DNA of 64,000 nt from IMG/VR virus record IMGVR_UViG_3300029121_000001. One strand, given 5' to 3'. The notes below the pieces were generated by a model, which was not told the DNA's origin, ran no database searches, and was given only the letters and a program-made list of their open reading frames with translations. This DNA is from a virus. Shown piece after piece: positions 9,073 through 51,371 of the stretch; the stretch's first letter is position 1; each line of letters begins with the position of its first letter. The translations under genes were made by a program, and so were the position numbers.

Positions 9073-9255
9073 TTACTTCTTCTGATTCTGTGACGCTTTA
9101 GTATTGGATACTGTGCTCCAGAATTTTGCGCCACTTCCTGCAAAGAAGCAGACTACCACCATTTCGATGAAGCACAAGATCAACCGTGCATAGTCAGAAA
9201 TACCTTTGCATTTCTTTTTGAGAAACGCAAAATATACCATGCTATAAGTCAGCAT
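9073..9255 (-). CDS. Small membrane protein, 60 aa
   Basis: AAAGGAGG SD. Two hydrophobic stretches (YSMVYFAFL, LILCFIEMVVVCFFAG). Confidence 0.6.
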   Translation of the reverse strand: MLTYSMVYFAFLKKKCKGISDYARLILCFIEMVVVCFFAGSGAKFWSTVSNTKASQNQKK

Positions 9256-11882: not shown

Positions 11883-11906
11883 GATTAATACCTTCTTAAA
11901 AATAAA

Positions 11907-11933
11907 GACCGGAGAGTATTTAGCTCTCCGGTC
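11907..11933 (-). terminator. Hairpin terminator after the RNAP gene
   Basis: gaccggagag-tatttag-ctctccggtc followed by TTTATTTTT in the minus sense. Confidence 0.7.
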
Positions 11934-11940
11934 CATTTAA

Positions 11941-14067
11941 TTATTCTTGCTGATCTCCTTTATCATTAGATACAAAATAAATTGCATCTACATTACCCTT
12001 CATATCATATTCATCATTAGAACGGAATTCATCAGAAACCATTTCATCATTAACCATGAATTTCTGAGGTTGTTCCATAAAGTAAAGATCAAAGATACTG
12101 GGTTTATGCTTTTTAGTAGACAAAGGAGAAACCAGAGTCTTACCAACACGCTGATATTCGAAGTTAACAGTAATACTCGGAGAATAATTTAATGCAGAAC
12201 TTAGAGTGAGGATCTTATAAGGTGCATTCTCAATAGCCCAATTAGGCATTTCAAGAATATTATCAGGATCTCTCATCTGATTTGCAAGAATAGTCTCCAA
12301 ATGAACAGCAGAAATTACCAGACCACCTTCAAGGTTTGCATTGATAAATTCTGCAACGATACTATCCTTATCAAAGGAAGAAGTATCTTTCTTTCTATCA
12401 ATGATATGCTTAGATCTTTCAAGAGTTCTCTGAAGTTCCTTATTCTGAATCTTGACACTAAAGATACTAGGCAAACCTTTAATAGCATCAAGAGGAATAG
12501 TATATACTCCATCATCTTCTTTAGCTTTCTTAGATTTAAGAATTCTATTAAGATCTTCTGTTAGATAGATATTATCTTCATCCACTGTATGGAATGTTAC
12601 AATTCTACCATCAGGATACAGCACATCAAAAGATGGAGTGAATTCTTCATAAATAATTCCATCACTGTCATCATCGTCATCAGAATCAAATTTACTAGAA
12701 TCCAAAACCAGATAATATCCAGATACATCCGTATCTTCATCGATATTGATAGAATTCAATTCGATTTTAAAGATATCAAAGAACTCAGGATTCCACTTCA
12801 TTTCGATGACTGCAGATTCAAGCAAATGCTTTGCGGACAGAAGCATCTGTGTATATTTCTCAGACAGAAGCTCAGCAGCCAACTTGCCAGGATTGATATC
12901 TCTATTAGTATAATAAAGATCACCATAGCATTTATGGCAAATGCCATGACCTCTAGCATAAGACTGACATGTGATAGGAGATCTGAAATATAGAGTCTTT
13001 CCAATAAGATCAGTATCTTTATCAGAATCCAAAAGATAATCAGGACCATGAGGATTAAACTTATAATATCTCTTATCATAGAGCTTTAAAAGTTTAGCAT
13101 CCTTGATAGTCATCTTAATGAAGTTTGCAGTATCACAGCAATAATTAGGATCATCGTTCAAGAATGTATCCAGATTATTAGTTTCCAGTAAACGTGCAAA
13201 TGCACCAGAGGTACCGACATTCATCTTCTGCAGAATCTGGGCAATTCTACCGACAGAGGAGTCAATAACATAAGATTCAGGATTCTCGACACCACCATTC
13301 ATGAAAGAATTATTAATGATATATGGGAAAATTCCTCCCTGACCATCAGGTTTAGTGCCAATATTGACAGACACTTCCTTAAACTGTTTCGGAGAAATAG
13401 CTTCACCTGAAGTAAAAGAGTCTCTCAAGCAATGATCATTTGCTTTGATATATTTGATCTGCATATTGGTATAATCCATGCCAATAGCTTTTACATCTTC
13501 AATAGGTGTATTAGACAGATCAGCATGGATAGACTCATTAAAATCAGGATACCTTTCCATCAGTTTAATGGTATCAGTGAAATTGACAGTATTTGCTAGA
13601 TACATAGCAAATTCATCAATATACTTCATCTTGGAAATCATATCATCAAAAAGATTATTGAGCACCATAAAGTTAATATCTTTTCTATGTGCTTTAATAA
13701 GCTTATTACAATAAGCTTCAATATTCTTTTTGGTAATAGCTGTCGTATTAAAGATATACCTTACGGTAATAATATCTCCAATGCAAATCGAGAATGTCCA
13801 GAAAATTAGATTATACCAATAATCTACCAAAGTAAATGTTACAAACTCATCAGAAGGATCAAGTCTATACTCAGGATCATGATTAAAATGAACTCCAATC
13901 TTATATGCTTGAACATCAGGTTGCTCAATGCCATCTCTCATTATATTGAGAATTCCATTAAAGTGATCCATAAAATTATCAGGATTAATTGTGTTTACAT
14001 CAATCTCCTGATATCCAGTTTGTGCGAGTTGAACATATGGGCCATAGTTTTCATAATAAGTAACCAT
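11941..14067 (-). CDS. Multisubunit RNA polymerase beta-prime subunit, C-terminal half (split subunit)
   Basis: TSGEAISPKQ...GTKPDGQGGIFPYIINNSF..G...ESYV.DSSVGRIAQILQKMNVGTSGAFARLL aligns by eye with the bacterial [54 protein letters not shown] (region F / bridge helix). RSPITCQSYARGHGICHKCYGDLY...INPGKLAAELLSEKYTQMLLSAKH matches VRS..TC....GVCA.CYGRDL...[25 protein letters not shown] (trigger loop). No NADFDGD motif, so the N-terminal half is encoded elsewhere. Confidence 0.85.
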   Translation of the reverse strand: MVTYYENYGPYVQLAQTGYQEIDVNTINPDNFMDHFNGILNIMRDGIEQPDVQAYKIGVHFNHDPEYRLDPSDEFVTFTLVDYWYNLIFWTFSICIGDIITVRYIFNTTAITKKNIEAYCNKLIKAHRKDINFMVLNNLFDDMISKMKYIDEFAMYLANTVNFTDTIKLMERYPDFNESIHADLSNTPIEDVKAIGMDYTNMQIKYIKANDHCLRDSFTSGEAISPKQFKEVSVNIGTKPDGQGGIFPYIINNSFMNGGVENPESYVIDSSVGRIAQILQKMNVGTSGAFARLLETNNLDTFLNDDPNYCCDTANFIKMTIKDAKLLKLYDKRYYKFNPHGPDYLLDSDKDTDLIGKTLYFRSPITCQSYARGHGICHKCYGDLYYTNRDINPGKLAAELLSEKYTQMLLSAKHLLESAVIEMKWNPEFFDIFKIELNSINIDEDTDVSGYYLVLDSSKFDSDDDDDSDGIIYEEFTPSFDVLYPDGRIVTFHTVDEDNIYLTEDLNRILKSKKAKEDDGVYTIPLDAIKGLPSIFSVKIQNKELQRTLERSKHIIDRKKDTSSFDKDSIVAEFINANLEGGLVISAVHLETILANQMRDPDNILEMPNWAIENAPYKILTLSSALNYSPSITVNFEYQRVGKTLVSPLSTKKHKPSIFDLYFMEQPQKFMVNDEMVSDEFRSNDEYDMKGNVDAIYFVSNDKGDQQE

Positions 14068-19355: not shown

Positions 19356-22300
19356 TTACATTATTATATCTGCTGTAATAACTAGATCAGTATTTGTATC
19401 GATATAGCCATCATCATTAGGTAATAGAGATTGAGTAGGAGCTTCATATTCAGCACTAGTACCAGTAAGATCAAGAACATTATTACCATACAAACTGTAA
19501 ATATGAACAGGGCTAGCATAATATCCAGCAGGTAGAATAATATCATTACCAGCAACTATTCTAAGTTTAGAAGTGGTATATGTAGGTATATTGCCTGTAA
19601 TCTTTTGGCCATTAACCCAAGCAGTCTTAGGAGCAAGTATATCAGAAGATGTAGCATCAGATACTGTTTGTTCTGCTAGAGATTGTGTAGAAATAATACC
19701 AGATCCATTATGGAATCCACTAGGAACAGTAATTTGAACTCCAGCAGGTATTTCCAATTCAGACCAGTCCATATTATTAGGCATGGTACCGATAACTTTT
19801 TTACCATTAACCCATGCAGTCTTTGCTGTGAGAATATTATATGCAATTGCAGTACCATCTGTTTGACTAGAAAGATCTTTCAAAACAATCTTTCCATTAC
19901 CATCATGATATCCCTTAGGAATAGCAATAGTAGAACCTGCTGTAACATCATCTTTTCCAAAACCAGTATTATCAGGCATAGTGCCCGTAATCTTTTTACC
20001 ATTAACCCAAGCTGTTTTATTAATCAAAAGATTAGCAGATACAGCATCAGATACTGTTTGTTCTGCTAGAGCCTGAGTAGTAATAGTACCATATCCAGAA
20101 TAATAGCCTTCAGGAATTTGAACAGTAGTTCCGGCTGCTAGATTGATAAAAGAAGTAGAACTCTTATTAGGCATTGTACCATCTACTTTTTTACCATTAA
20201 CCCAAGCGGATTTACTAATCAAAATATCATTAGCTGTAGCATCTGCTTTTGTTTGTGTAGCTAGGTCAACAGCAGATACAATAGATTTACCACTATGATA
20301 TCCAGCAGGAATTGTATAAGAATCTCCAGCATATAGAGAAGTCATTGTATCGGGAGATTGATACATTGTACCAATAAGCTTCTGCTTAAGATTATCACTA
20401 TAGAATGTAACTCCAGAAACTACTTTATCTGCTGTAGCATTACCGGTTAATTCCAAAGTGCCAACAACTTTTTCACCGTTAACCCATGCAGTAGATCCTT
20501 TGACAATATCATCAGCAGATGCAGTGCCAGAAGTCTGTCCTCCTAATCCTTTTGCAGTAATAACACCAGATCCATCATGATATCCCTTAGGAATCTTATA
20601 TGATTCATTTGCTTCTAGTGTAGCAGACACAGCACCATTATTAGGCATTGTACCAACTATCTTAGCCTTAGGATTTGTACTATAGAAAGTTTTATCTTCT
20701 AGAACATTCTCAGATTTTGCAGATCCAGTAAAAGTAAGTGAACCAACTTGTTTCTTCTTAGGATCTGTAGTATAGAATGTAGAGCCAGCAACTACATCAT
20801 CAGATAGAGCATTGCCAGTAAGTGCAAGAGTACCAGTTCTCTTAGTCTTTGAATCAATATTGTAGAAAGTCTTTCCTACTAATACATCATCAAGAGCTGC
20901 ACTACCTGTCAATTCAAGTGTGCCTGTTACCTTTTTACCATTCACCCAAGCTGTTCTATTTTTTAGAATATCAGTATTATCTGCATTGGCTATTGTCTGA
21001 GAAGCTAGATCTTTAGATATAATAATACCAGATCCATTATGATATCCTTTAGGAACAGTATAAGATTCTCCTGCTAGTAGAGTAGAAGATACAGCACCAT
21101 TATTAGGCATTGTACCATCTACCTTTTTACCATTAACCCATGCATTCTTAGTAATAAGAATATCAGGAGATGTAGCATTAGCTTGAGTATAATCAGATAG
21201 AGGTTTTACCCAAACATTACCAGTACCATCATGATATCCTTTTTTAATTTCATAAGATTCGCCAGGACCAATAGTTACAGAAGATCCTCCATTGTTAGGC
21301 ATAGTGCCAACAATCTTTTTGCCATTAACCCAAGCAGAAGATCCTTCTAGAATAGAGTCAGAAGTTGCTGTACCAACAGTTTCAGAAGAAAGTGTTTTTG
21401 CTTTTACTTTTCCATTACCAGTATGAAATCCTTTAGCAATATCAAATATTTCTCCTTCACCAAGTTCAACAACTTTAGGATCAATCATTGGTACAGTACC
21501 AACAATCTTTTGACCATTAACCCAAGCAGTTCTATCTGCAACGAGTGAATCTGGAGTAGCACTACCAACAGTAGCATCTTTTAAAGATTGAACTTTGATT
21601 GTTGTGCGTCCAGAATAATATCCCTCGGGAATAGTAAATGTAACACCATTTCTAAGAATCCTTTCAGGATCATTACTGTGATCTGGCATAGTACCAGATC
21701 GTACTTCTGCATATACAGAAGAATAAAAATTCTTACCACTCAGAACCTGATTCTGAGTAGCATTTGTAGTTTTTAAATATTCTTTTGTATTTTGTGCAAT
21801 ATCGAATGTACCAACAATCTTTTGACCATTAACCCAGGCTATTTGTCCTTTAATAATTTGACTAGACAAAGCATTGCCTACAGTTTGAGATGCTAGATCT
21901 GCAGCTGAAATAACTGTAGTACCAGCAGATAATCCATAAGGAAAAGTATAAGACTCTCCTGCAAGAAGATTCTTATCTTTTCTAGGTAATTTAGGAATAG
22001 TACCAGTAACTTTTTTGCCATTAACCCATGCTGTTCTAGGAGAAACAATATCAGAAGCAGTAGCATCTGCTTCTTGAGTAGCTTGTTTAATATCAAGAGT
22101 ACCGGTAACCTTCTTACCATTTACCCAGAATGTCTTAGTATTGATAACATCAGCAGCTGTTGCTGTGCCAGGTGTATACTCACTAAGATCTCCTACATAT
22201 ACAGATCCTGTTCCATCATGATATCCACGTGGAATGATATATCTATTATTAGTATGGCCATCATACTTAGGATCTATCTTTATCTTTTCTGCAGTATTAA

Positions 22301-22529
22301 GAGGCATTGTACCTACCAATACATCTCTTGTTACTGCATCTTTATATGCATATTTATCTTTAACTGACGATGGAGTAGCAATAGATTCGTCAGGCTCTTG
22401 TTGTGCTAATGCATCAAGATTGTTTGCACTAGATGTATCAAAATACATTTTGCCAGCCATATGTTGATCCAACTCCTCTCCTTTAATAATATTAATATAA
22501 TGTGCGAAAGCTCCTAAGTTCAACTTCAT
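19356..22529 (-). CDS. Repeat-built tail-fibre-like protein, 1057 aa
   Basis: About 17 tandem modules carry the core (T/S)AWVNG(K/Q)K(V/I)xGT(M/L)P or its TFY...K.GT variant, alternating with (A)GESYT(I/V)PKGYH(D/N)GSG...L(A/S)SQT. No SD before the ATG at 22529. An alternative ATG at 22460 lies 12 nt after GGAGAGGAG. Confidence 0.75.
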   Translation of the reverse strand: MKLNLGAFAHYINIIKGEELDQHMAGKMYFDTSSANNLDALAQQEPDESIATPSSVKDKYAYKDAVTRDVLVGTMPLNTAEKIKIDPKYDGHTNNRYIIPRGYHDGTGSVYVGDLSEYTPGTATAADVINTKTFWVNGKKVTGTLDIKQATQEADATASDIVSPRTAWVNGKKVTGTIPKLPRKDKNLLAGESYTFPYGLSAGTTVISAADLASQTVGNALSSQIIKGQIAWVNGQKIVGTFDIAQNTKEYLKTTNATQNQVLSGKNFYSSVYAEVRSGTMPDHSNDPERILRNGVTFTIPEGYYSGRTTIKVQSLKDATVGSATPDSLVADRTAWVNGQKIVGTVPMIDPKVVELGEGEIFDIAKGFHTGNGKVKAKTLSSETVGTATSDSILEGSSAWVNGKKIVGTMPNNGGSSVTIGPGESYEIKKGYHDGTGNVWVKPLSDYTQANATSPDILITKNAWVNGKKVDGTMPNNGAVSSTLLAGESYTVPKGYHNGSGIIISKDLASQTIANADNTDILKNRTAWVNGKKVTGTLELTGSAALDDVLVGKTFYNIDSKTKRTGTLALTGNALSDDVVAGSTFYTTDPKKKQVGSLTFTGSAKSENVLEDKTFYSTNPKAKIVGTMPNNGAVSATLEANESYKIPKGYHDGSGVITAKGLGGQTSGTASADDIVKGSTAWVNGEKVVGTLELTGNATADKVVSGVTFYSDNLKQKLIGTMYQSPDTMTSLYAGDSYTIPAGYHSGKSIVSAVDLATQTKADATANDILISKSAWVNGKKVDGTMPNKSSTSFINLAAGTTVQIPEGYYSGYGTITTQALAEQTVSDAVSANLLINKTAWVNGKKITGTMPDNTGFGKDDVTAGSTIAIPKGYHDGNGKIVLKDLSSQTDGTAIAYNILTAKTAWVNGKKVIGTMPNNMDWSELEIPAGVQITVPSGFHNGSGIISTQSLAEQTVSDATSSDILAPKTAWVNGQKITGNIPTYTTSKLRIVAGNDIILPAGYYASPVHIYSLYGNNVLDLTGTSAEYEAPTQSLLPNDDGYIDTNTDLVITADIIM

Positions 22530-22569
22530 AGTAATTTAGAGACATTTCCATACAGGGAGGTAAAACATT

Positions 22570-23883
22570 ATGCCCTTTACTGATTCTATTAATATCGTAA
22601 ATGTAGTTGTTACAGATAGATCTTTACTAAATGCTACACCTTCTGATGTTGCACAAGGTAAACAATTTATTGGTTCTACTCAGCATGTAGAAACAGGTAC
22701 AGTTCCTGTAAATAATCCTATCTCTGATATGACACTTCCTGCTGGTAGTACTCTTACAGTACCTTATGGTATCAATCCCAAACAATTTACTATCACTGCA
22801 CAAAGTATTGGAAGTGTAACTGCTGATGCAGATGCTACAGATGAAGACATCCTATGGGGAAAGACTGCTTGGGTTAATGGCCAAAAAATAAAAGGAGCTA
22901 TGCCTAACATTGGAGCAGAAAATGATATTATCCTATGTGATAACGTTCATACTATCTCTAGAGGATATCATGATGGCAATGGTGTTATTAGAGCCGAATC
23001 TCTAATGAAACAAACTCCTGCTTCAATTGTAGCTAAAGATATCATTGTTGGCTCTACATGTTGGGCAAATGGTAAGAAGATTACAGGAACAATGCCTGTA
23101 ATTAAAGATAATAGTGTTACTCGTGCATTGTATGCAGGAGAATCTTATACAGTTCCTGAAGGATATCACAGTGGTAAAGCTGTAATAAGTGCTGCTTCTC
23201 TAGCATCTCAAACTGGTGGTAATGCTATACCTGAAACCATTATTGAAGGATATACTGCTTGGGTTAATGGTCAGATGGTTAATGGTACAATTAAAAAGAT
23301 TAATCCAGAAAAAATTACTCTAGAAACTAATAAAACTTATTATATTCCTGCTGGATATCATACAGGAAAAGGATATGTAACTCAAAATGTTCCTAATATG
23401 GATGGTCAAACTGTTGCTCCTGGAAAGGATGCTCAGACCATTGAATGTGGCGGTTACTACATGAATAGTGATATTATTATTTCTGGAGTAGATGCTCTAA
23501 ATTATAGATTTCTCAATAATGATCCAGTAATAAATTCTTCTAATAAAGAGATTACTAATTATAATCTTACAGTAGAAAATAATTATGCTAGTGTTAAAGT
23601 CAATGTCGATAACTGGCATGATAATGCTACATTAAATGTATATAATTTGATATTTGATAATCTAATTGATTCTAATGGTAATAGAGTTAATCTAAATACC
23701 ACAGTTGTATTTAACTGGAAAGATCAATCCACAAATATTTATACATTAGGAAATATCACCATTGGTACTAAATATGAAGAAAATACTAATGCTCATATGA
23801 TCATTATTGGTGGTATTAAGAGTGGTATTCTAACTATGACTGAAGTTTTCTCTGCTCGTCAATTTGGTGTTATAAAAGAATAA
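22570..23883 (+). CDS. Second tail-fibre-like protein, 437 aa, same WVNG/GYH(D/S/T)G modules plus a unique C-terminal domain
   Basis: AGGGAGG SD. Contains TAWVNGQKIKGAMPN, TCWANGKKITGTMP, TAWVNGQMVNGTI. Divergent from 19356-22529 with only 40 bp between the starts. Confidence 0.75.
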   Translation: MPFTDSINIVNVVVTDRSLLNATPSDVAQGKQFIGSTQHVETGTVPVNNPISDMTLPAGSTLTVPYGINPKQFTITAQSIGSVTADADATDEDILWGKTAWVNGQKIKGAMPNIGAENDIILCDNVHTISRGYHDGNGVIRAESLMKQTPASIVAKDIIVGSTCWANGKKITGTMPVIKDNSVTRALYAGESYTVPEGYHSGKAVISAASLASQTGGNAIPETIIEGYTAWVNGQMVNGTIKKINPEKITLETNKTYYIPAGYHTGKGYVTQNVPNMDGQTVAPGKDAQTIECGGYYMNSDIIISGVDALNYRFLNNDPVINSSNKEITNYNLTVENNYASVKVNVDNWHDNATLNVYNLIFDNLIDSNGNRVNLNTTVVFNWKDQSTNIYTLGNITIGTKYEENTNAHMIIIGGIKSGILTMTEVFSARQFGVIKE

Positions 23884-26513: not shown

Positions 26514-26774
26514 TTAAATATAAAGTATTTTAGAAGTGACTTTTCCTGAATATTCAGCTTGTAGACGTATCAATATAAAATAGCCTTTATTATCTTCATT
26601 ACGCTCCATATAAATGCCTGATATTGTAAATGGATGACTAGTATTATCACTAACATCTTTTATATATATTATTTGTAATGGAATTTTTGGATCTGGTACA
26701 TAATATATTGCTAACGTGCCACGCTGTACAGTAGTAATTGCGTCATCTATTTTAATTTTAGTAGAAGCGTCATT
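26514..26774 (-). CDS. Start-less cassette ORF 1 (NDASTKIK...KILYI), 86 codons
   Basis: Open frame beginning 2 codons after the TAA of cassette 2, in the same frame. Box variant TAATGACGCTTCTAC. First in-frame ATG is about codon 57. No SD. Confidence 0.5.
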   Translation of the reverse strand, partial: NDASTKIKIDDAITTVQRGTLAIYYVPDPKIPLQIIYIKDVSDNTSHPFTISGIYMERNEDNKGYFILIRLQAEYSGKVTSKILYI

Positions 26775-26776
26775 AT
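26757..26776 (-). repeat. Cassette box, copy 1 (TAAT-GACGCTTCTACTAAAAT)
   Basis: GACGCTTCTAC is identical to the other copies. The CT of CTGACG is missing. Confidence 0.8.
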
Positions 26777-26780
26777 GCTT

Positions 26781-27014
26781 TTAAATATATATTATATTTG
26801 CATAGGTGCTATATTTATCAAAATAAAATGTATCATTACCACTACCATGTGCATATGCAGCATATAGTTTATTATTATATTTATATATACCAGAATATTC
26901 TTCTCTAATTGATGGTGAATTTAATAAATCGTATCCTATTATTATACCTGCTAGTACATATCCTTTGGTTGCATCGATATATATTCCATCAAGCCTTTTT
27001 ATAGAAGCGTCAGA
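26781..27014 (-). CDS. Start-less cassette ORF 2 (SDASIKRL...ANIIYI), 77 codons
   Basis: Opens directly after TAA (27017-27015). No in-frame ATG, GTG or TTG anywhere and no SD. Closest paralogue is 44915-45139. Confidence 0.55.
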   Translation of the reverse strand, partial: SDASIKRLDGIYIDATKGYVLAGIIIGYDLLNSPSIREEYSGIYKYNNKLYAAYAHGSGNDTFYFDKYSTYANIIYI

Positions 27015-38191: not shown

Positions 38192-41100
38192 ATGCAGTCT
38201 ATTATTCTTGCAGAATCAGTTGTTGCTAATACTGCTAAGAGTACTTATCAAAAGAAATATAAGTGCCCTTATTGTGATAAACGATTTGTAAGAGCAAAAC
38301 TTCATATTCATATTCAAAATGAACATGAAGATCTTATACCTGAAGGTTATACTGCTCTTAGAGTAGCATTCAATACTATTAATCATAAAACAGAAGGTCA
38401 TTGCATTATGTGTGGTGCAGTGACTGATTGGAATGAAGACAAAGGTAGATATGAAAGACTCTGCAATAATCCTAAATGCCATGAAGCATATAAGAAGATG
38501 GTTGCAGAACGTACTAAGAAAAAGTATGGCACAGAACGTCTTCAGACAGATCCAGAATATGCAGAATATGTTCAAAGAAAAGCACTTGCTGGACGCAAAA
38601 TGCATGGAGAATATAAATTTGCTGATGGTGGAGTAATTGAGTATTTCGGAAGTTATGAAAAGAAATTCCTTCAGTTTATGGATCAAATAATGCATTGTAA
38701 ATCTGAAGATATTCTTGCTCCTGCTCCTAGTATCAAATATATTTATAATGGAGAGCAGCATCTATATATTCCTGACTTCTATTATATTCCTTATAATCTT
38801 ATTATAGAGATTAAAGATGGTGGAAGTAATCCGAATAACCATCCTCATCGTACTGGAGAAGATGAACTTAAGCTTAGATGTAAAGAAGAAGCTATTATAC
38901 AGCTTAATGAATTTAGCTATGTAAGAGTAGTTAATAATGACTTTAGCCAAGTATTGAGTATCATGGCAGTGCTTAAATATAACATGGCTCATAGATACAA
39001 AGACCCTGTTGTTAAGGTAAATGAGAGTACGCTTCTAGAAACTGCTAGTATAGTAGATAAGAATTTCAAGCCTAAAGACAGAATTAATCTATATTCTTTG
39101 AAGAAAGTTCATATCACGGAAGCCGTCATTGAAAAGTATAAGAAACAGTATCCTGATCTGCGTCATGTTAGATGCAAAGATACTGATACTTATAAATGTG
39201 ATGGATATATGTGGTTTGATAATGAGAATCTAGTAGCCCAAGTAGGATCTTGTGAGTATCTAGATGATGGAACAAAATGGATTGTAAGTCTAGATATTAT
39301 GAAAGATTATAAGGGTCATGGTTTAAGTAAACAAATTCTTGATTTTGCAACTAAGATCATGAAATGCAAATATCTTTCTGTAGATAAAAATAATAAACTT
39401 GCAAAAATGATTTATGATCAGTATGGATTTAAAGTTTATTATGAAGATGATAAGATGTACTACATGACTCTAGAAGCAAATCCTGTAAAGGTCAATGAAT
39501 CTACTTTATTAGAATCTGTATCTAATAATTATCCTAAGGATCTTTATAACTGGATGAAGGCAAATATTACATATAAATCTACTGGAATTCTTCTATCACC
39601 TGAAGAGGTAGAAGAATATGGATATGGAGATTGTCATGATCAGGCAAATTATATTCATAGTAAATTGTCTACTAAAGATATTTCTAATGGAAGATTATTT
39701 GTGATTGAATATAATGATCTAAATTCTCCTGCAGGAAAAACTCATACTGCTGCTTATTATAAGCAGAATGGAAAGTATTATTGGATTGAAAATGCTTGGT
39801 ATGAGCAAACTGGAATCCATGGTCCTTATAATAGTATTTTCGATCTTAAAATTGCTATTGTAAATGTATGGGTTTGGGGTAATTATAAGAATCTATATAT
39901 AGGCTCTGTAAATAGATCTAAAATTAAGAATGGTATGAATCTAAATGATTATGTAAATGCTTGTCTTCCTGAGAATGAAAAAATGATTAAGCCTTTTATT
40001 ATCAATGAAGATAATACCAATCATATTAAGAATAAAGTTGTTGAGTCTATGTCTGATACTATTGGTGGTGCATTACCACTAACTCCTAATCCTATTCCTT
40101 ATGAATCTAATAAAGATAATTATTACATTATCCAGCATATGGAGAATAATGCTTTTGCTTATTCTCTTACTAAAGATCCTGTACAATATACAATGTATTC
40201 TGTAGATCCTGAATCTAAAGGATTTTATAAAGTTTTTAAGTCTGATAAGAGTAAGATTAATAAAAAATATTCTACTTTTAAGATCAAGGATCGCCAAAAA
40301 GCAAAAGAACTTTATGATGAATTAGCAAAGATTGAATCTTCTAATTCTAAAACTTTCTTTGCTGGAGATACTTCTAATGATTATATTTATCAACGTCTAA
40401 CTGAAGGCTCTAAAATAATTTCTGATGATCAAATTAGATATGATACTAGATTTGAAGAAGTTAAAAACTTCAATGAAGAAGTTCAAGATATCTGTGAATC
40501 TGTAAGAAATTTCATTCTTGGTGATCCCATCACTAGACTAGAAGAGCAGGTATCTACTCTATCCAATCTAGTAAATATCAATGAATCTTCTAATTATGTC
40601 TCTAGTGATTATGACATGATTACTAGTATAGAAGATTATGATAATAAAGTTCTTAAAGCAAAAACTGCTGAACAAATGGGTTTAATTATTCTATATCCTG
40701 AGTTTAAATATGGTACTTGTAATAAAAATACCATTGATAAACTTAAGAAGAAATATGCAGACTTTAATGCTCTTTCCCAAGAAAAAAGAACTCTATCTAA
40801 TAGAACAGCATATCATATCTTTGGATATGATAATGATACTCTATATAGTAAGCTACTTAATCTCTATGTATCAACAACTATGAAATCCGGAGGAGGATCA
40901 GAAGGATATTCATATAATACTATGAGATCTATTACTCCTCCTATTGAGCAATATTATAAACCTGGTGAAAAAGTTGGTACAGTTAGTTCTGATACTAAAG
41001 TGGCTAGAGAATCTTTTACTGATGATTCTTCTTGGAGACAAGTTGTAAGCAAACTTTGTCTAGAAGCAAATAACACAAGTGATGCAAAAAAGAAAAATGA

Positions 41101-41902
41101 TCTCAAAAATGAGATCATCAATCTTGGATGGAATCCTGAAATTCCTTTCAATGAAGAAGCCATTACTAGAGTAAAAAATATGAGACATAAGCTTCATATT
41201 TTTACAGAGGTGGATGCTGAAGAGTATATCAGAAATATTCATACTTTCAATGAAGCTACTTATAATCAATTGAAAGATAAGATTGTTCCTGTATTCATTT
41301 GCCTATTCAAAGGTAAAGCTCTTCATAGTAGAGGAATTGAGCTGTATACCGGATCTGAATGGTCTCATGCTGCAATATCATTCGATTCTTCTATGAAACA
41401 AATGTATACATTTAATATGAATCCTAAAGTAACTTCTAATGGAATATCTAAAGGATTTACTATTGAAAGTATAGAAGCTTATTGGAAAATAGATCCTTCT
41501 ATCAAATTCAAAGTTCATGCTCTATTTGTTACAAAAGAGCAAAAGATTATGATGGAAGATGCAATCAAATGGTATGTAACTCATCAGAATGAAACTAAGT
41601 ATTCTTTTAAAACCATTATCAATATTGCTCTAAAACGAGTATCAGATTTTGGTTCTGAATATGCAAATAAAACTGAAATGGTATGTAGTCAGTTTGTATA
41701 TACTATTTTGGCAATTGCAGATTTCAAAACTAAGGTCACTAAAGATGCAAGTCTAGTAAGTCCTGGAGATCTTGATACTAGTATTGATGATAGACTATAC
41801 TCTATGTTTATTGGAGGTATTGGCCTATATAGTAGTAAAAAGATTGATAGAATGGTTAGACAAATCATTCCTACACTACCATTAGATAAGTATAATATTT
41901 AA
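38192..41902 (+). CDS. Polyvalent multi-domain protein: C2H2 and Cys4 zinc fingers + PD-(D/E)xK nuclease-like + GNAT acetyltransferase + transglutaminase-like Cys protease + long linker + permuted papain-like (YiiX/C92-like) domain
   Basis: YKCPYCDKRFVRAKLHIHIQNEH. HCIMCG...LCNNPKCH. YIPDFYY...LIIEIKDG. DIMKDYKGHGLSKQILDFA...YGFK. YGYGDCHDQANYI...GKTHTAAYY...WIENAW. EWSHAAISFD...MVCSQFVYTIL...VSPGDL. AAGGAGG SD. Confidence 0.7.
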   Translation: MQSIILAESVVANTAKSTYQKKYKCPYCDKRFVRAKLHIHIQNEHEDLIPEGYTALRVAFNTINHKTEGHCIMCGAVTDWNEDKGRYERLCNNPKCHEAYKKMVAERTKKKYGTERLQTDPEYAEYVQRKALAGRKMHGEYKFADGGVIEYFGSYEKKFLQFMDQIMHCKSEDILAPAPSIKYIYNGEQHLYIPDFYYIPYNLIIEIKDGGSNPNNHPHRTGEDELKLRCKEEAIIQLNEFSYVRVVNNDFSQVLSIMAVLKYNMAHRYKDPVVKVNESTLLETASIVDKNFKPKDRINLYSLKKVHITEAVIEKYKKQYPDLRHVRCKDTDTYKCDGYMWFDNENLVAQVGSCEYLDDGTKWIVSLDIMKDYKGHGLSKQILDFATKIMKCKYLSVDKNNKLAKMIYDQYGFKVYYEDDKMYYMTLEANPVKVNESTLLESVSNNYPKDLYNWMKANITYKSTGILLSPEEVEEYGYGDCHDQANYIHSKLSTKDISNGRLFVIEYNDLNSPAGKTHTAAYYKQNGKYYWIENAWYEQTGIHGPYNSIFDLKIAIVNVWVWGNYKNLYIGSVNRSKIKNGMNLNDYVNACLPENEKMIKPFIINEDNTNHIKNKVVESMSDTIGGALPLTPNPIPYESNKDNYYIIQHMENNAFAYSLTKDPVQYTMYSVDPESKGFYKVFKSDKSKINKKYSTFKIKDRQKAKELYDELAKIESSNSKTFFAGDTSNDYIYQRLTEGSKIISDDQIRYDTRFEEVKNFNEEVQDICESVRNFILGDPITRLEEQVSTLSNLVNINESSNYVSSDYDMITSIEDYDNKVLKAKTAEQMGLIILYPEFKYGTCNKNTIDKLKKKYADFNALSQEKRTLSNRTAYHIFGYDNDTLYSKLLNLYVSTTMKSGGGSEGYSYNTMRSITPPIEQYYKPGEKVGTVSSDTKVARESFTDDSSWRQVVSKLCLEANNTSDAKKKNDLKNEIINLGWNPEIPFNEEAITRVKNMRHKLHIFTEVDAEEYIRNIHTFNEATYNQLKDKIVPVFICLFKGKALHSRGIELYTGSEWSHAAISFDSSMKQMYTFNMNPKVTSNGISKGFTIESIEAYWKIDPSIKFKVHALFVTKEQKIMMEDAIKWYVTHQNETKYSFKTIINIALKRVSDFGSEYANKTEMVCSQFVYTILAIADFKTKVTKDASLVSPGDLDTSIDDRLYSMFIGGIGLYSSKKIDRMVRQIIPTLPLDKYNI

Positions 41903-44822: not shown

Positions 44823-44881
44823 TTATAAGCGCCCCTTTCTTTATGAATAGAAGTAGATTATTATAAAGTTTTCAAGATAAA

Positions 44882-44914: not shown

Positions 44915-45139
44915 TTAAATATATATTATATTAGCATAACTACTATAGTTTCTAAAATCGAACCCACTGCTCCAGTCAAATCCATATGTAGCATATACTT
45001 TACCGTTATATTGATATGCTGTAAAATATTCAGATTGTCCTGGACTATCTAATAAATCACATCCTATCATTGTGCCATTTAATGGATATCCACTAGTAGT
45101 AATATAAATATTATTAAGCTTTTTTATAGAAGCGTCAGA
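44915..45139 (-). CDS. Start-less cassette ORF 3 (SDASIKKL...ANIIYI), 74 codons
   Basis: Opens directly after TAA (45142-45140). First in-frame ATG is at codon 23. No SD. Paralogue of 26781-27014. Confidence 0.55.
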   Translation of the reverse strand, partial: SDASIKKLNNIYITTSGYPLNGTMIGCDLLDSPGQSEYFTAYQYNGKVYATYGFDWSSGFDFRNYSSYANIIYI

Positions 45140-45637: not shown

Positions 45638-45922
45638 GTGAAAATATACACTTTAAATAAATCTGACGCTTCTATTAAGATAAAGAATAAAATTGTAAAT
45701 GTAAAAGATTATTATACATTTAGAGATGGTATCATATTAAATACCTGCCTTATGACGTATTCTAATGTAAGTTATTCATATAGGCCATTTATTCAAGTGC
45801 GTTACGATAATAATGATAATAGTTATAGTATTAGAATACAATGTATCATTAATAGTGATATTGATGGATATAATTTCGATAATAGTGTGAATGATGGAAG
45901 TATTATAATATATTATATATAA
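45638..45922 (+). CDS. Cassette ORF 4 (MKIYTLNK-SDASIKIK...SIIIYYI), the only plus-strand copy
   Basis: The frame opens right after TAA with a GTG 8 codons before the box. No SD. Ends in IIYYI like 51132-51371. Confidence 0.55.
   Translation: MKIYTLNKSDASIKIKNKIVNVKDYYTFRDGIILNTCLMTYSNVSYSYRPFIQVRYDNNDNSYSIRIQCIINSDIDGYNFDNSVNDGSIIIYYI
45658..45676 (+). repeat. Cassette box, copy 4 (TAAATCTGACGCTTCTATT)
   Basis: Inverted relative to all the other copies. Confidence 0.85.
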
Positions 45923-45962: not shown

Positions 45963-47297
45963 TTACTTATTAAATGCTTCTTTTTCTAGATTAAATAAAT
46001 AATCAGCTTCTTCTTTACCAAGAATATCTACTACTTCATTATATGGAAGATTGATCTTTGTTGGATCTTTATCTCCTAACTCAATACATCTTCTATTATA
46101 ATAGTAATAGTATCCTAATACTCTACCTTTATGAGCATAACAAATTCCAGTATATCTTTTATTCGCAGTTCCATATAATTCATAATTATATGCAGAACAC
46201 CAACCACAATTCAAAGATACAGGACAATCAATACACTTCTTTGGAGATTGAGAAGTGAATGTTATAGAATCAAGTTCTTTCTTGATATTCTTACTACTCT
46301 CTGATTTAAATAATCCATTAAAGCAATCACCAATAATAATTTTATTAGCTTTCTCTTTTCCAATAGATATAGGAGCATATCTAATACAAGGATAAGCATT
46401 GCCATCTGGGTCAAATGCCATCATATGACCGGTACCACCACAGAAATTCTTATCATCATGCTGTAGATTGACTGCTCCTCCGAGAGTAGAATCAAGTAAA
46501 GCTACAATAGCATTACTTTTATTTTGAATTAAATAATTAGAAAGCTTCTTTAATTCAAAATAAATATTCTTTGCATCACTAATAGAATATTCTGGTTCAT
46601 ATGCAAAATTGCAATTAACAAGGTTACATCCATTCTCAATCATCATCTTAATAGATGGAGTAATATATTGAACAGAATTGGGAACAAATGTCATTTTACT
46701 ATTCGCTGAACCATAAATATTTTTTACATCAAGAAATGCTTTATATGCTTTTTCAAATGATCCTTCTCCATATCTATCGATTCTATATTTATCATGAAGA
46801 TCTTGAATACCATCAATAGATACAGTAATTGATAAGAATTCTTTATACTTATGCACAAAATGTTGTACATCTTTATCAAACCAATTCTGACCATTTGTAG
46901 CAAAAGCAATTCTAGTAAATTGAGCAATAGGAATATTCCTTAAATAGCATTGATGAAAGAAATAATCACATATTTCTTCTACTAATTTTGCTTCTAGCAT
47001 TGGTTCTCCACCAATAAAATCAAGAATAATACTTTTTGTATTCTTATTGATAAAATCAGTGTCATTATCCTCATACATATCTAGAATTCTATCAATACAT
47101 TTTTTACCAATATAGAGAGACATAGATCCATCAGACTTATGATGTTCATAACAATAAGAGCAACGAAGATTACACTGATTTGTTACCTGAAATGTAATTT
47201 CTCGTGCAGCCTCCATTTTTCGATCTTCTCCATTTGAAAAAATCTCTCGAATATACTCACCATAATTGTCTCTAGATCGACTATTAATACTTACCAT
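45963..47297 (-). CDS. Radical SAM enzyme with C-terminal SPASM/twitch-type auxiliary cluster domain (anSME / peptide-maturase-like)
   Basis: CNLRCSYC (CX3CX2C), GGEPML, then CGGTGHMMAFDPDGNAYPC, CIDCPVSLNCGWC and GICYAH. The start overlaps the upstream stop (ATGGTAA). Confidence 0.85.
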   Translation of the reverse strand: MVSINSRSRDNYGEYIREIFSNGEDRKMEAAREITFQVTNQCNLRCSYCYEHHKSDGSMSLYIGKKCIDRILDMYEDNDTDFINKNTKSIILDFIGGEPMLEAKLVEEICDYFFHQCYLRNIPIAQFTRIAFATNGQNWFDKDVQHFVHKYKEFLSITVSIDGIQDLHDKYRIDRYGEGSFEKAYKAFLDVKNIYGSANSKMTFVPNSVQYITPSIKMMIENGCNLVNCNFAYEPEYSISDAKNIYFELKKLSNYLIQNKSNAIVALLDSTLGGAVNLQHDDKNFCGGTGHMMAFDPDGNAYPCIRYAPISIGKEKANKIIIGDCFNGLFKSESSKNIKKELDSITFTSQSPKKCIDCPVSLNCGWCSAYNYELYGTANKRYTGICYAHKGRVLGYYYYYNRRCIELGDKDPTKINLPYNEVVDILGKEEADYLFNLEKEAFNK

Positions 47298-47584
47298 GTT
47301 AATTCTACCTCATTATTATCGAAATCAAATTCATATTCTATAGAAGAAGGAACTTTTCCGATTATAGAGGCAATAAGAGTATTTACGTTTACCATAAATT
47401 CAATATAGGCATTCTGATAATCTACTCTATATTTATCTATCATAGCTGCAGTTTCTGCGGATTTATTTTCTGCAAATTCACGAGCCAATACACAAATGAA
47501 ATTTTTATAACTCATCATAATATAATGAAGTCTTTCAATTGTAATAGATTGCTCTTTATCAATATTAACTTTCTTTTTCTGCAT
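47291..47584 (-). CDS. Hypothetical helical protein, 97 aa, translationally coupled to the radical SAM gene
   Basis: The track start is a TTG. The ATG at 47584 is more likely. Overlaps both neighbours. Confidence 0.6.
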   Translation of the reverse strand: MQKKKVNIDKEQSITIERLHYIMMSYKNFICVLAREFAENKSAETAAMIDKYRVDYQNAYIEFMVNVNTLIASIIGKVPSSIEYEFDFDNNEVELTW

Positions 47585-48185
47585 TATTATTAGTCTCCAT
47601 TTCAATCAGATGATAAGCTGTAGTTTCAGTTTTAAGAGATTCATATCGATCTCTTATATAAAAAATTTTATCGAGAATCCTGATAAGAAGACTATTGTCT
47701 CTATCCTTTTCTTCAATCATCTTATTAGCAATTGAACGTAGCACAGTATAAAGACAATATACATGAAAATTAGAATTTGTACTCATACTTAGAAAAATGT
47801 TTATTTTATTATTATCTATAGGAAATCCATCAATAACAGTAAAATTGCATTTATCTGAATATGTCTTTAAAGTAATTGTATATATAGTAAGAAGTATTTC
47901 TTCATCTGTAGCATCATAATTACATGCTGAAAAAATACTAGATACTACAGAACTTACATATTTTGCATAATCATGTATATTAATAGAAAAGTCAGAATGA
48001 CAAAGTGTGCAAAAATAATCTATATAACAAAATTCGGGTTCTTTAGATATATTATCAAAAATAATAAGCATATCTTTAGTAATTGGATCCATTGAAAGAA
48101 ATCTATTAAGTAAGAAATTCTTTTTAAAGAATTTATCATTTTTAGAATAATTTATAGTAAAGGTATCATTAGTAATATCTATCAT
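47565..48185 (-). CDS. Hypothetical protein, 206 aa
   Basis: GGAGG SD. Same operon. Confidence 0.7.
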   Translation of the reverse strand: MIDITNDTFTINYSKNDKFFKKNFLLNRFLSMDPITKDMLIIFDNISKEPEFCYIDYFCTLCHSDFSINIHDYAKYVSSVVSSIFSACNYDATDEEILLTIYTITLKTYSDKCNFTVIDGFPIDNNKINIFLSMSTNSNFHVYCLYTVLRSIANKMIEEKDRDNSLLIRILDKIFYIRDRYESLKTETTAYHLIEMETNNNAEKES

Positions 48186-48198
48186 AAAATATCCTCCA

Positions 48199-48756
48199 TT
48201 ACATTAACCAAAATCCACATCCAGAGCAAGATTCACAAGTATGAGCACATCCAGATCCACACCCTTCGCATCCATCACACCCTCCACTACATCCTCCACT
48301 ACATCCAGAGCAAGTAGTGTTACATCCTCCACTACAATTTGTTTTACAATTTCCAGAACATCCTTTACAACCACCATAGCAACCAGTATTGCACAATCCA
48401 CTACAAGATGCTTTACATCCAGTAGAGGTCGCATCTTTAGCAATTTTAGAAAGATTGCCTACTGATGTAGTAGCATTTGTAAGTACACTAGCAATAACAT
48501 TAGCATTTTTATCAGGAGTTGTATTACTACCAGTAACAGCATCCAAAGGTTTAGTAATCTTTTGAATGTGTTCTAAATTGATTTTAATATCTTTACCTTG
48601 AGCTGGTGTAGTAGTATAATCATATGAAGTTCCATTATAGGATTTCATACTTCCAACACTTGCTGAATTTGATCTACGTGTAATCTCCGATTTTACGAGT
48701 TTCTTAAGTGCAGTAAAATCACTAGCATTAATTAATTCGCTTTTTTTAATACCCAT
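48199..48756 (-). CDS. Protein with extreme Cys/Gly/Ser-rich C-terminal tail, 185 aa
   Basis: The last 74 residues contain 19 Cys spaced CX2C/CX3C (GCKASCSGLCNTGCYGGCKGCSGNC...CSGGCSGGCDGCEGCGSGCAHTCESCSGCGFWLM). AAGAGGG SD. Confidence 0.75.
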   Translation of the reverse strand: MGIKKSELINASDFTALKKLVKSEITRRSNSASVGSMKSYNGTSYDYTTTPAQGKDIKINLEHIQKITKPLDAVTGSNTTPDKNANVIASVLTNATTSVGNLSKIAKDATSTGCKASCSGLCNTGCYGGCKGCSGNCKTNCSGGCNTTCSGCSGGCSGGCDGCEGCGSGCAHTCESCSGCGFWLM

Positions 48757-48760
48757 AATA

Positions 48761-49270
48761 TTACCCTCTTACACGAATGCGTACTCGACGAATATCTGTA
48801 TTAAGATCTTCATCGACTGCATATCCTACAATTTGTGTATTTTCTACTATTTCATCATGAAGTTTTGCTTTACCAACTCCAGAAATATCAGAAACTATAA
48901 TAGTATCTCCACGATGAATTTCTCCAATACACTTACAGTATACACGGCCACATAGTGATACAGGAATATATTTCTTAATATTCTTAGAAATATAATCATC
49001 ACTATTATCATATTGATCACCACCAATAATCATAGCATATTCATCAGAATGAACACCTGCAATAATACTACTTTTATTAGTAGCTTTAATATAGCTTTCT
49101 TTATCAGAAGATAGATCAAGAGCAATAATATCTCCAGGTTCTGTATATTCTCCTCTAGGGAAGAATTCTGCATAGTCATTATATACAGCACCATAACATT
49201 TACTAAATTTTGCTACACCATTTTTATCTACATAATAACTAGCACTACCAAAATTAATAGTACCCGTCAT
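48761..49270 (-). CDS. Hypothetical protein, 169 aa, first gene of the radical SAM operon
   Basis: GGTGGA SD. NDYAEFF...PGD...GRVYCKCIGEIHRGDTI recalls modules seen in phage fibre-associated proteins (unverified). Confidence 0.65.
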   Translation of the reverse strand: MTGTINFGSASYYVDKNGVAKFSKCYGAVYNDYAEFFPRGEYTEPGDIIALDLSSDKESYIKATNKSSIIAGVHSDEYAMIIGGDQYDNSDDYISKNIKKYIPVSLCGRVYCKCIGEIHRGDTIIVSDISGVGKAKLHDEIVENTQIVGYAVDEDLNTDIRRVRIRVRG

Positions 49271-49282
49271 TGTTCCACCAGA

Positions 49283-49310
49283 CTTAAGAAGATAAGCGTC
49301 AAATTATTAT
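49283..49310 (-). repeat. Cassette-box variant in the 5' leader of the radical SAM operon (ATAATAATTTGACGCTTATCTTCTTAAG)
   Basis: Shares ATAAT, TGACGCTT and CT..TAAG with the cassette boxes. Here it is followed by an SD and ATG 12 nt downstream of the box end. Confidence 0.6.
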
Positions 49311-49338
49311 AATTTTAATATATTTCAAAAAAAAGAAA

Positions 49339-49366
49339 AACCAATAGAGAGAAATCTCTATTGGTT
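49339..49366 (-). terminator. Hairpin terminator closing cassette 5
   Basis: aaccaatagaga-gaaa-tctctattggtt. An inverted paralogue of 51390-51417 with a compensatory pair change. Confidence 0.75.
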
Positions 49367-49371
49367 TATAA

Positions 49372-49587
49372 TTAAATATAATACACTATACAAGATATAT
49401 TATCATCCGTCCAAGTTGATGTATTACTACCTAAAGTAAAATGAATACAATATATCCAAGATGATTTAGATATAAATGCAATATAATTATAATAGTTTTC
49501 TTTAATTGCAACAGATATTGGAATTCCTAATGTAAACTTTTGTCCTGATTTAAAATCTATACTCTTAATTTTAGTAGAAGCGTCAGA
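49372..49587 (-). CDS. Start-less cassette ORF 5 (SDASTKIKSIDF...CIVYYI), 71 codons
   Basis: Opens directly after TGA (49590-49588). The only in-frame ATG/GTG/TTG is a GTG 4 codons before the stop. No SD. Confidence 0.55.
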   Translation of the reverse strand, partial: SDASTKIKSIDFKSGQKFTLGIPISVAIKENYYNYIAFISKSSWIYCIHFTLGSNTSTWTDDNISCIVYYI

Positions 49588-51131: not shown

Positions 51132-51371
51132 TTATATATAATAAATTATTGCTGTACCTGATACACAGTTATCAACATCATGTGAATTATATCCAGTATT
51201 TGCACATATATAATATAAATTTTCAGTATAATATTTATTATTCATTGTTATACTACACACAGGATAATTAGTACCATTATATATTAATACAGCAGATATT
51301 GGCGTTCCTGGTACAGAAAAATAACTTGACACTTTTACTGTTATATTTTTAATCTTAGTAGAAGCGTCAGA
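51132..51371 (-). CDS. Start-less cassette ORF 6 (SDASTKIKNITVKV...GTAIIYYI), 79 codons
   Basis: Opens directly after TGA TAA (51377-51372). The track catches only the part from an internal GTG (51332). No SD. Confidence 0.55.
   Translation of the reverse strand, partial: SDASTKIKNITVKVSSYFSVPGTPISAVLIYNGTNYPVCSITMNNKYYTENLYYICANTGYNSHDVDNCVSGTAIIYYI

Follow-up and report, generated by a model that had tools for sequence, protein, structure and literature searches.

A probable empty attachment site of a fibre-diversifying recombination system in a gut jumbo phage

The site and its immediate surroundings

We analysed a 64,000-nucleotide stretch of viral DNA (hereafter the window; IMG/VR record IMGVR_UViG_3300029121_000001) and focus here on 28 of its bases, at positions 49283–49310, which comparison with related sequences indicates to be, very probably, the empty attachment site of a site-specific recombination system diversifying a short tail-fibre or appendage protein. 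The window (~31% G+C) is 100% identical to a 258,080-bp JGI contig (L151) from a human-gut data set, and is part of a ~258-kb gut jumbo phage. It encodes the beta subunit of a phiKZ-type RNA polymerase and several virion proteins.

On the minus strand, bases 49310 to 49283 read ATAATAATTTGACGCTTATCTTCTTAAG and form an unoccupied attB-like attachment box, ATAATAATT-TGACGCT-TATCTTCTTAAG, at the 5' edge of an open reading frame (ORF) devoid of a start codon, which we call a start-less cassette. The core TGACGCT (49295–49301) is the putative crossover region. From 5' to 3', the same strand carries an intrinsic terminator with a 13-bp stem and a T-run (49367–49338), which belongs to the upstream cassette, then GAAATATATTAAAATTATAATAATT, the octamer TGACGCTT (49301–49294), ATCTTCTTAAG, TCTGGTGGAACA and an ATG at 49270, directly preceded by GTCTGGTGGAACA. 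A previous description of the locus made from its letters only (the sequence-only reading) had pointed out this sequence, the terminator with its T-run, a Shine-Dalgarno (SD)-like stretch and the ATG, all of which are present where it placed them. The cassette itself (48761–49303, minus strand) has 180 codons (FDAYLLKSGGTMTGTINFGS...RVRIRVRG) and encodes a Peptidase_G2-like C-terminal domain of a fibre or appendage protein; gene callers only recover its 169-amino-acid (aa) part starting at ATG 49270, and NCBI lists versions of 166–169 aa.

The box is in frame with this ATG: the codons TAA TTT GAC GCT TAT CTT CTT AAG TCT GGT GGA ACA ATG read *FDAYLLKSGGTM, with a stop two codons 5' of GAC. The stop has the same position in five of the six small cassettes of the window (described below), and lies a few codons further in the sixth. 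Codon differences at the site among four genomes are synonymous only (CTT/CTA and AAG/AAA); L081, which is syntenic with the site region, retains the degenerate box with two synonymous changes relative to the window. In addition, the T preceding GAC and an AAT further upstream are kept across differing codons and stop codons, which makes the box both a nucleic-acid signal and a series of codons. The suggestion of the sequence-only reading that the box is a DNA or RNA signal is thus borne out.

The octamer TGACGCTT occurs eight times in the window for 0.65 copies expected (the copy at 9091, plus strand, is probably a chance match), and the longer box ATCTGACGCTTCTA is found exactly at five further places. 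The full box heads six other start-less open frames of the window. To score these boxes, we used a weight matrix trained on 54 boxes from related phages. The site reaches 11.6 bits, as compared with 31–37 bits for the six clear boxes of the window, and among 100 random windows generated with a first-order Markov model to match its dinucleotide make-up, 30 contained a score of 11.6 bits or more. The bases shared with the cassette box, on which the sequence-only reading had based its case, do exist. However, the chance test that it had itself proposed shows that the motif resemblance at 49283–49310, taken alone, is not above chance. The site is therefore validated by the comparative evidence presented below, not by motif resemblance.

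The same site is occupied in related phages

Contigs L145 (259,495 bp) and L146 are syntenic with window positions 44–57 kb. Genes of 566, 386, 182, 352 and 219 aa, followed by a 167-aa gene on the other strand, are found in the same order in the three sequences, and the order continues in L145 and L146 with a fused gene, a Cys-repeat protein, two small genes, a radical SAM gene and an 824-aa gene. Exactly at the TGACGCT of the site, L145 and L146 contain an inserted module of 0.83–0.94 kb. In L145, the left junction reads terminator-...AAATAATA-TGACGCT-ATTACGAAGTAGTCTGAG and the right junction ...CTGACTTCGCTAAA-TGACGCT-TATCTTCTTAAGTCTGGTGGAACAATGAC; the terminator at 49338–49367 also forms the left flank of the module in L150. 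Homology between the window and the occupied L145 starts with the opening base of the core, at 49301, and we conclude that the window carries the empty site and L145/L146 the occupied one. In the alignment, the site falls beside the attL and attR of L145/L146 and the circle junction of a further contig, L144 (see below). Another contig, L128, has the same left flank as the site and then runs into another cassette.

Protein sequences corresponding to the occupied site were also recovered: a constant N-terminal part is fused exactly at the site's box in P0108, P0124, P0106, P0127 and P0131 (310–313 aa), with a junction reading ...MNQTLTSLN-DAYLLKSGGTMTG... (also written TSLN-DAYLLKSGGTMTGTINFGS..., or ...DACLKKSGGTMTG...). 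P0108 is a 13-member cluster, of which five members (312–315 aa) are fused. The sequence-only reading held that the box is non-coding and, lying upstream of a normal SD and ATG, cannot act as codons; these five proteins contradict it, as their constant N-terminus reads through the box. Its supposed SD and start are the codons GGT GGA ACA ATG of the motif SGGTMTG, which is typical of phage fibres. Other homologues of the C-terminal domain are fibres of 278–310 aa with unrelated N-termini, which have Leu or Phe in place of the supposed start Met (LSGGTLTG, VSGGTFTG) and in which no start is therefore possible at that position. As regards function, close homologues have a precomputed match to PF11962 (Peptidase_G2, a domain that cleaves itself in appendage and spike proteins), P0108 itself (E=3e-5) falling just short of the cutoff, and the name given at NCBI is 'Preneck appendage protein barrel'.

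The mobile module and its fusion proteins

The module (831–944 bp) consists of a terminator-like hairpin, an AT-rich region, a ribosome-binding site (RBS), an ATG and 137 constant codons (MPIIDKIKV...NHSHKVAQL...MNQTLTSLN), which continue in frame through GAC GCT into the cassette, the core GAC GCT being the codons Asp-Ala of the fused protein. The AT-rich part would also hold a promoter. The non-coding stretch (~530 bp) contains five TGTGAAGNC..TTAAGA repeats and one inverted box, and such an inverted internal box is found in every module. Module ends read ..TTCGCTAAA-TGACGCT on the right and TGACGCT-ATTACGAAG on the left: every inserted module has these seven bases at each of its ends, and the circular junction contains them a single time.

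Insertion/absence polymorphism is also observed at a second locus. The ENA contigs L132 and L134, syntenic with window positions 17–30 kb, have 935 bp more than L131 and L133, exactly at a box. L132 equals L131 plus these 935 bp, the insert being bounded by the 9-bp repeat AATGACGCT and giving a fused product of 208 aa. L132 and L134 share 11,638 nt at 99.99% identity before they part after GACGCTTCTAT, just past the core, into different cassettes. Overall, the module is found at at least 10 different left flanks across assemblies. For example, contig 139374 carries the module fused to a 282-aa cassette, whose counterpart in contigs 121810 and 126218 follows a terminator and is silent.

Querying protein sequences with the constant part was productive and returned 78 clusters. 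All searches pooled, 81 sequences have the junction ...SLN-DA.., and the reading frame is kept in every one of them; 76 of the 81 tails are at least 30 aa long and fall into at least 28 families. All seven cassettes of the window have relatives among the fused tails. In an AlphaFold model of a fusion protein, the small cassette forms a confident all-beta domain (predicted local distance difference test, pLDDT, ~90–95) and the constant part is poorly predicted; a Foldseek search of the PDB with this model gave a best match at E=0.27. The G+C content is 42% in the constant 5' part (L132, 11214–11840) and 23–29% in cassettes, the long cassette at the site being at 32%.

Looking for the expression site of the window itself, we detected no module by blast and no long ORF with DA[ST].. 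in frame within the window, and the window's own contig was not among the matches of a metagenome scan for the left end of the module.

Three further observations concern the module and its constant part. A longer paralogous fibre gene (L129, 3620–4192; L123, 775–1206) shows ~60% identity to the constant N-terminus, and is frameshifted at a G7–G9 homopolymer in two contigs, either through assembly error or through slipped-strand phase variation. In L149 (ENA ERZ1745276; 912 nt at 1.5x coverage), what follows the module beyond the core is not a cassette but the antisense strand of another gene, and the resulting tail (P0048) has 28 aa; off-target recombination, or else an arrangement that is rare, may account for it. 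Finally, a more distant jumbo phage, L141 (IMG/VR 3300021256_001754; 249,585 bp), carries at 11715–11733 an arm-core-arm sequence, AACTTCGCTAAATGACGCTATTAC, heading a start-less cassette (..TSLNDAITPTTL..) that is followed by a variant box, AATGACGCAATAAAT, and more divergent constant domains (P0074–P0089) have the junction SLNDA[LIYWM]. The system thus extends beyond the clade.

Start-less cassettes

The window contains seven start-less frames, each opening at a box with the core TGACGCT. Besides the long cassette at the site, there are six small frames of 71–94 codons, which start with (S/N)DAS[TI]K and end with (I/V/L)(I/Y)YI*. A stop lies 1–9 codons 5' of each frame, and none has a usable start codon. 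Immediately upstream of the site, on the minus strand, is SDASTKIKSIDFKSG...CIVYYI* (49372–49587, core 49585–49579; fused relatives P0053 and P0046). The same strand carries SDASTKIKNITVKV...AIIYYI* (51132–51371, core 51369–51363; recognised by its box and fused relatives) and SDASIKKLNNIYI...ANIIYI* (44915–45139, core 45137–45131; fused relative P0049, 79% identity; L158), as well as a tandem pair made of SDASIKRLDGIYI...ANIIYI* (26781–27014, core 27012–27006; box and fused relatives) and KHNDASTKIKIDD...KILYI* (26514–26780, core 26772–26766; fused relative P0063). The sole plus-strand cassette, ..KSDASIKIKNKIVNV...IIIYYI*, is located at 45638–45922 (core 45664–45670; fused relative P0050).

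Cassettes are numerous in relatives, with at least 29 in 45 kb fetched from one IMG/VR contig. Some stand alone behind a terminator and others form tandem arrays; both strands carry them, with a spread of more than 200 kb, and they end either at ordinary terminators or abutting the next box. Within tandem arrays, boxes directly follow the preceding stop codon, which leaves no space for a promoter. Head-to-head arrangements are also found: two boxes of L145, at 7258 (minus strand) and 7282 (plus strand), lie ~20 nt apart and each open a divergent cassette, and window positions 45137 (minus) and 45664 (plus) represent a wider, ~530-bp version of this arrangement around a 119-aa ORF.

Searching with a 19-mer of the box, which is specific, identified four IMG/VR contigs of 161–271 kb with many cassettes each; matches of a 14-mer scan of viral contigs were mostly due to chance. 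The INPHARED phage collection yielded a single relative, distant and 30 kb long, and a search with one small cassette retrieved only short, mis-started ORFs.

Circular junction and recombinase

L144, a 1085-nt megahit contig (k=141), has a 141-nt terminal repeat and therefore represents a 944-bp circular or head-to-tail unit. Its junction reads CTAACTTCGCTAAA-TGACGCT-ATTACGAAGTAG, also CAGACTCTAACTTCGCTAAA-TGACGCT-ATTACGAAGTAGTCTGAG, with imperfect inverted arms of ~10–12 bp around the core, a dif/lox-like layout. Written as ACTTCGCTAAAT-GACGCT-ATTACGAAGT, with outer CAGACT / AGTCTG, it is organised like the sites of Xer/dif or lox systems. In cassette boxes, including the site, the shared sequence is limited to a portion of one arm (TAC.AAG / ..TAAG), in the manner of weak attB sites. 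Two proteins, P0035 and P0069, end in ...LNDAITK* and encode an L144-type junction.

In contig 139374, a 329-aa tyrosine recombinase (PF00589, E=4e-39) is encoded 2.7 kb from the module. Its best NCBIfam matches are XerA, XerC and XerD, below cutoffs, and orthologues with 91–100% identity are present in all four cassette-bearing jumbo contigs of IMG/VR. The gene is absent from the window (blast), and synteny with contig 126218 places it ~40 kb past the window end. We infer that this Xer-like recombinase would cut and rejoin DNA within TGACGCT. Two routes are both compatible with the data: excision and re-integration, to which the insertion/absence case and the circle point, and inversion, to which the L132/L134 difference and the inverted box point.

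The radical SAM operon downstream of the site

Four genes follow the long cassette without gaps on the minus strand. The first one encodes a 185-aa protein (48199–48756) with ~20 CxxxC/CxxC repeats at its C-terminus (CKASCSGLCNTGCYGGCKGCSGNC...), the L145 orthologue of which faintly matches PF27846. It is followed by two genes of unassigned function, encoding proteins of 206 aa (47565–48185; orthologues in L081, L145 and L146) and 104 aa (47291–47605; same operon), and by a gene for a radical SAM/SPASM peptide maturase (45963–47297; PF04055, phrog_1802). The maturase is akin to the CXXX-repeat target family, under the TIGR04115 cutoff (292 bits for a cutoff of 350), and the 185-aa protein is likely its substrate. 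This is a cross-linking system resembling those of ribosomally synthesized and post-translationally modified peptides (RiPPs), located in a jumbo phage directly behind a fibre cassette (45963–48756). As there are no gaps and the next terminator-like hairpin (45955–45927) lies after the radical SAM gene, a module seated at the box would probably drive the four genes as well. With the site empty and a terminator upstream, the cassette and the four genes are thus without a module-supplied promoter.

The sequence-only reading placed the cassettes and the radical SAM operon in one regulon. The box does tie them together; they are, however, not co-regulated transcription units, being probably alternative and mutually exclusive targets of one mobile promoter-plus-5'-gene module.

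Similar associations are found elsewhere. In L150, a paralogous fused cassette and a second radical SAM operon occur in another genomic context. In L135 (IMG/VR contig 3300045988_139374), positions 11358–13767 encode a reverse transcriptase (PF00078) and a 272-aa protein directly after a 419-aa module-fused long cassette, both being absent from the same place in contig 121810. The reverse transcriptase may belong to a diversity-generating retroelement acting on top of the cassette system.

Other features of the window

The sequence-only reading had also noticed an echo of the box before the 824-aa gene. The echo (ATAATCTACTTCTA, 44848–44861, minus strand) exists, but GACGCT is missing from it and its score is under 6 bits. 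Conservation of the echo in L081, L145 and L146 is 100%, and the whole intergenic region is identical although the upstream cassettes differ. The pattern ATAATCT-N0-6-CTTCTA occurs four times in the window (0.12 expected). At the echo site, which is without the recombination core, no module insertion was seen. The echo may be a promoter-like element akin to the AT-rich sequence on the left of boxes, or may have arisen through decay of a box.

Two other loci of the window may be mentioned. An unusual fusion is encoded at 38192–41902 (plus strand), where a 1236-aa protein has an endonuclease-like N-terminal region (phrog_15137) together with regions resembling acetyltransferase and enoyl-CoA hydratase. 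At 19356–23883, a 1057-aa protein contains nine phrog_13589 repeat units, and a divergently transcribed 437-aa protein shares this repeat.

Interpretation and alternative explanations

In this system, many open frames lack a promoter, an RBS and a start, and the module supplies an RBS and a start, and presumably a promoter, when seated at their box. When the site is occupied, the constant part reads in frame via GAC GCT into ...SLN-DAYLLKSGGTMTG..., giving a protein of 310–313 aa. The module would excise as a 0.94-kb circle and re-integrate, and/or invert between opposite boxes, and its promoter would drive the fused gene together with any downstream operon; the biological purpose would be host-range variation. 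Going further, we tentatively suggest that a free 0.94-kb circle bearing the promoter and the first 137 codons may, during infection, be repeatedly excised by the Xer-like recombinase and re-integrated among dozens of boxes of the 260-kb genome, providing fibre variants within each burst and turning accessory operons on at particular boxes. Equally speculative at this stage is the idea of a roaming expression site, the reverse of an integron, which would include the radical SAM/CxxxC-peptide operon here and the reverse-transcriptase locus in a relative.

Several points weigh against an empty attachment site. Its arms differ from those of small cassettes (TATCTTCTTAAG versus TCTAYWAAR), and an independent translation of the 169-aa ORF (GGTGGA being located ahead of ATG 49270) is conceivable when the site is empty. 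Both the module and the recombinase lie outside the window, and the ON site of this genome was not found; the promoter of the module is presumed, and the link between enzyme and site putative. Moreover, the evidence is all comparative, across metagenome assemblies and one circular-looking contig: it shows recombination at the core, which may be programmed switching within an infection or a slower evolutionary shuffling.

Exchange at a real site could proceed over evolutionary time by short-homology or general recombination, as in pilS- or vls-style gene conversion, without a dedicated recombinase. This is in line with the between-sample nature of all the evidence, with the mosaic surroundings of the recombinase gene in contigs 139374 and 121810, and with the odd junction of L149 to non-cassette sequence at 1.5x coverage. 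We consider it unlikely, because the 7–9 bp of identity at junctions do not suffice for efficient homologous recombination, all breakpoints fall within TGACGCT with single-base precision, and near-identical L132 and L134 differ only at the junction; the dif/lox-like inverted arms of the excised or tandem form, and the conserved Xer-like recombinase co-occurring in every genome checked, also argue for site-specific recombination. The latter enzyme is also an obstacle to the view that the module is a non-autonomous transposon, similar to miniature inverted-repeat transposable elements (MITEs) and mobilised by a DDE transposase with a strong target preference for TGACGCT. Module ends are indeed imperfectly inverted (CAGACT..ACTTCG..TAA.T), the core is duplicated at both ends, and copy-out-paste-in insertion sequences also form circular junctions. 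Nevertheless, the conserved neighbour is a tyrosine recombinase and not a transposase, no transposase family was detected among the scanned ORFs of the window and L135, the sequence of the 'duplication' never varies and the arrangement respects the reading frame, and the change restricted to the right junction of L134 fits site-specific exchange better than transposition, which makes a transposon very unlikely.

The explanation favoured by the sequence-only reading, namely a non-coding promoter, leader, processing or regulator-binding site with co-regulated transcription and a normal start at ATG 49270, has a small probability in our view. Many boxes do follow an ATAAT-like element and a T-run, GGTGGA is found 5 nt upstream of the ATG, gene callers and NCBI have versions of 166–169 aa, and a core-less box-like motif is kept before the 824-aa gene. 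However, the six small cassettes have no usable start behind their nearby stops, the box is in frame and translated in fused homologues, the 'leader' varies only by synonymous changes, the Met is replaced by Leu or Phe in homologues, and tandem arrays leave no space for a promoter ahead of their boxes; a scan for sigma-70-like promoters, overall at background level, detected none between terminator and ATG on the minus strand. The box is not a promoter, an initial transcribed region or a processing site of a 5' leader, and among the options listed by that reading a protein-binding site is probably the right one. Finally, the resemblance might be due to chance in AT-rich DNA, as the 30 of 100 random windows matching the 11.6-bit score would allow, and fused genes might be assembly chimeras across a short repeat. 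This is hardly credible: the repeat (7–9 bp) is far shorter than assembler k-mers (119–141), so that junctions must be present in reads, the same fusion was recovered from different assemblers and samples (SPAdes NODE contigs, megahit k119/k141, Logan), and the reading frame is preserved in all 81 fusions.

Other candidates were examined and rejected. Bypass or read-through in the style of T4 gene 60 does not fit unrelated upstream C-termini in other frames, with terminators between and array cassettes in different frames. Leaderless or non-AUG initiation at the box, or a +1 NTG start with a frameshift, meets a frame that stops within 4–10 codons, and fusions explain expression. Long ORFs read normally in table 11, which excludes an alternative genetic code, and cassettes are unrelated in sequence to one another, unlike the template and variable repeats of a diversity-generating retroelement.

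If the empty-site interpretation holds, a single movable module would serve, in a group of common human-gut jumbo phages, at least 28 families of fibre ends, with 29 or more cassettes in one genome, which would be among the largest viral receptor-binding repertoires known. It would explain seemingly start-less or truncated small ORFs, which gene callers mis-annotate as proteins of 50–170 aa, and would link a radical SAM peptide-maturation operon to fibre switching. Such a system would matter for host prediction of gut phages and for strain-level structural variation in viromes, and its minimal recombinase and att site with a 7-bp core might provide a tool for programmable in-frame gene fusion.

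Comparison with known systems

Classical shufflons, such as that of R64 (Rci/sfx), span 1.7–2 kb, consist of three or four segments, adjoin their gene and proceed by inversion only. Tail-fibre shufflons have been described in BV01-like phages (PMC13596623) and in a Bifidobacterium prophage (Rin; PMC6109161). As in shufflons, the system presented here combines a tyrosine recombinase (putatively the 329-aa PF00589 protein encoded beside the module in L135), a border marked by short asymmetric repeats between a constant 5' part and alternative 3' parts of an adhesin or fibre gene, and many isoforms, with 81 in-frame fusions. Unlike shufflons, it involves dozens of genome-wide cassettes, and the moving piece appears to be the promoter-bearing 5' module. 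Instead of being clustered and moved by inversion only, cassettes have a dispersion exceeding 200 kb, with many in direct orientation, insertion/absence cases and a 944-bp circular or tandem junction.

Alternative C-terminal fibre segments, sometimes with an accessory gene (U/U'), are also a feature of Mu Gin, P1 Cin, p15B Min and e14 Pin, where site-specific recombination within the gene joins them to a constant N-terminal part. However, these switches use a serine recombinase, 26-bp near-palindromic sites, a Fis enhancer and 2–6 segments in a single invertible region, none of which is seen here: no resolvase or invertase domain was found in the ORFs scanned, a part of the genomes, and the core is asymmetric and 7 bp long. 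Integrons offer another parallel, as promoterless cassettes are expressed from one promoter after site-specific recombination by a tyrosine recombinase, with circular intermediates. In contrast to integrons, cassettes are fixed here and the small circle is a promoter-plus-5'-gene unit, fusion is translational, there are no attC-type folded sites, and integrase models score 100 and 69 bits for cutoffs of 265 and 435. Our literature searches, which combined jumbo phages with shufflons or tyrosine recombinases, gave no description of such a system, nor of a roaming expression site in any virus, which is not proof of absence.

The closest parallel may be drawn with the vsa locus of Mycoplasma pulmonis, where the HvsR tyrosine recombinase brings a promoter, an RBS and a 5' coding region before silent 3' genes, the site being located inside the 5' coding region (PMC2268961). 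Both systems rely on a single expression site, a Xer-like tyrosine recombinase and silent genes without promoter, RBS or start, so that one variant would be expressed at a time. In the phages, cassettes have no start, the module brings an RBS, an ATG and 137 codons (and presumably the promoter), the recombinase best matches XerA, XerC and XerD, and the recombination site lies within the coding region. Related mycoplasma systems are vpma/Xer1 and vsp/Mbr. As for inversion, it would be compatible with the difference between L132 and L134, which is confined to the right of the core, and with the inverted box of every module. However, Mycoplasma systems invert only, while insertion/absence polymorphism and the 944-bp circle point to excision and integration here. 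The system further differs in being viral, in diversifying a virion fibre instead of a lipoprotein, in the wide distribution of its cassettes, which are found across more than 200 kb on either strand and also as tandem arrays, and in that some of these cassettes bring operons with them, as shown by the radical SAM genes at the site and the reverse transcriptase in L135.

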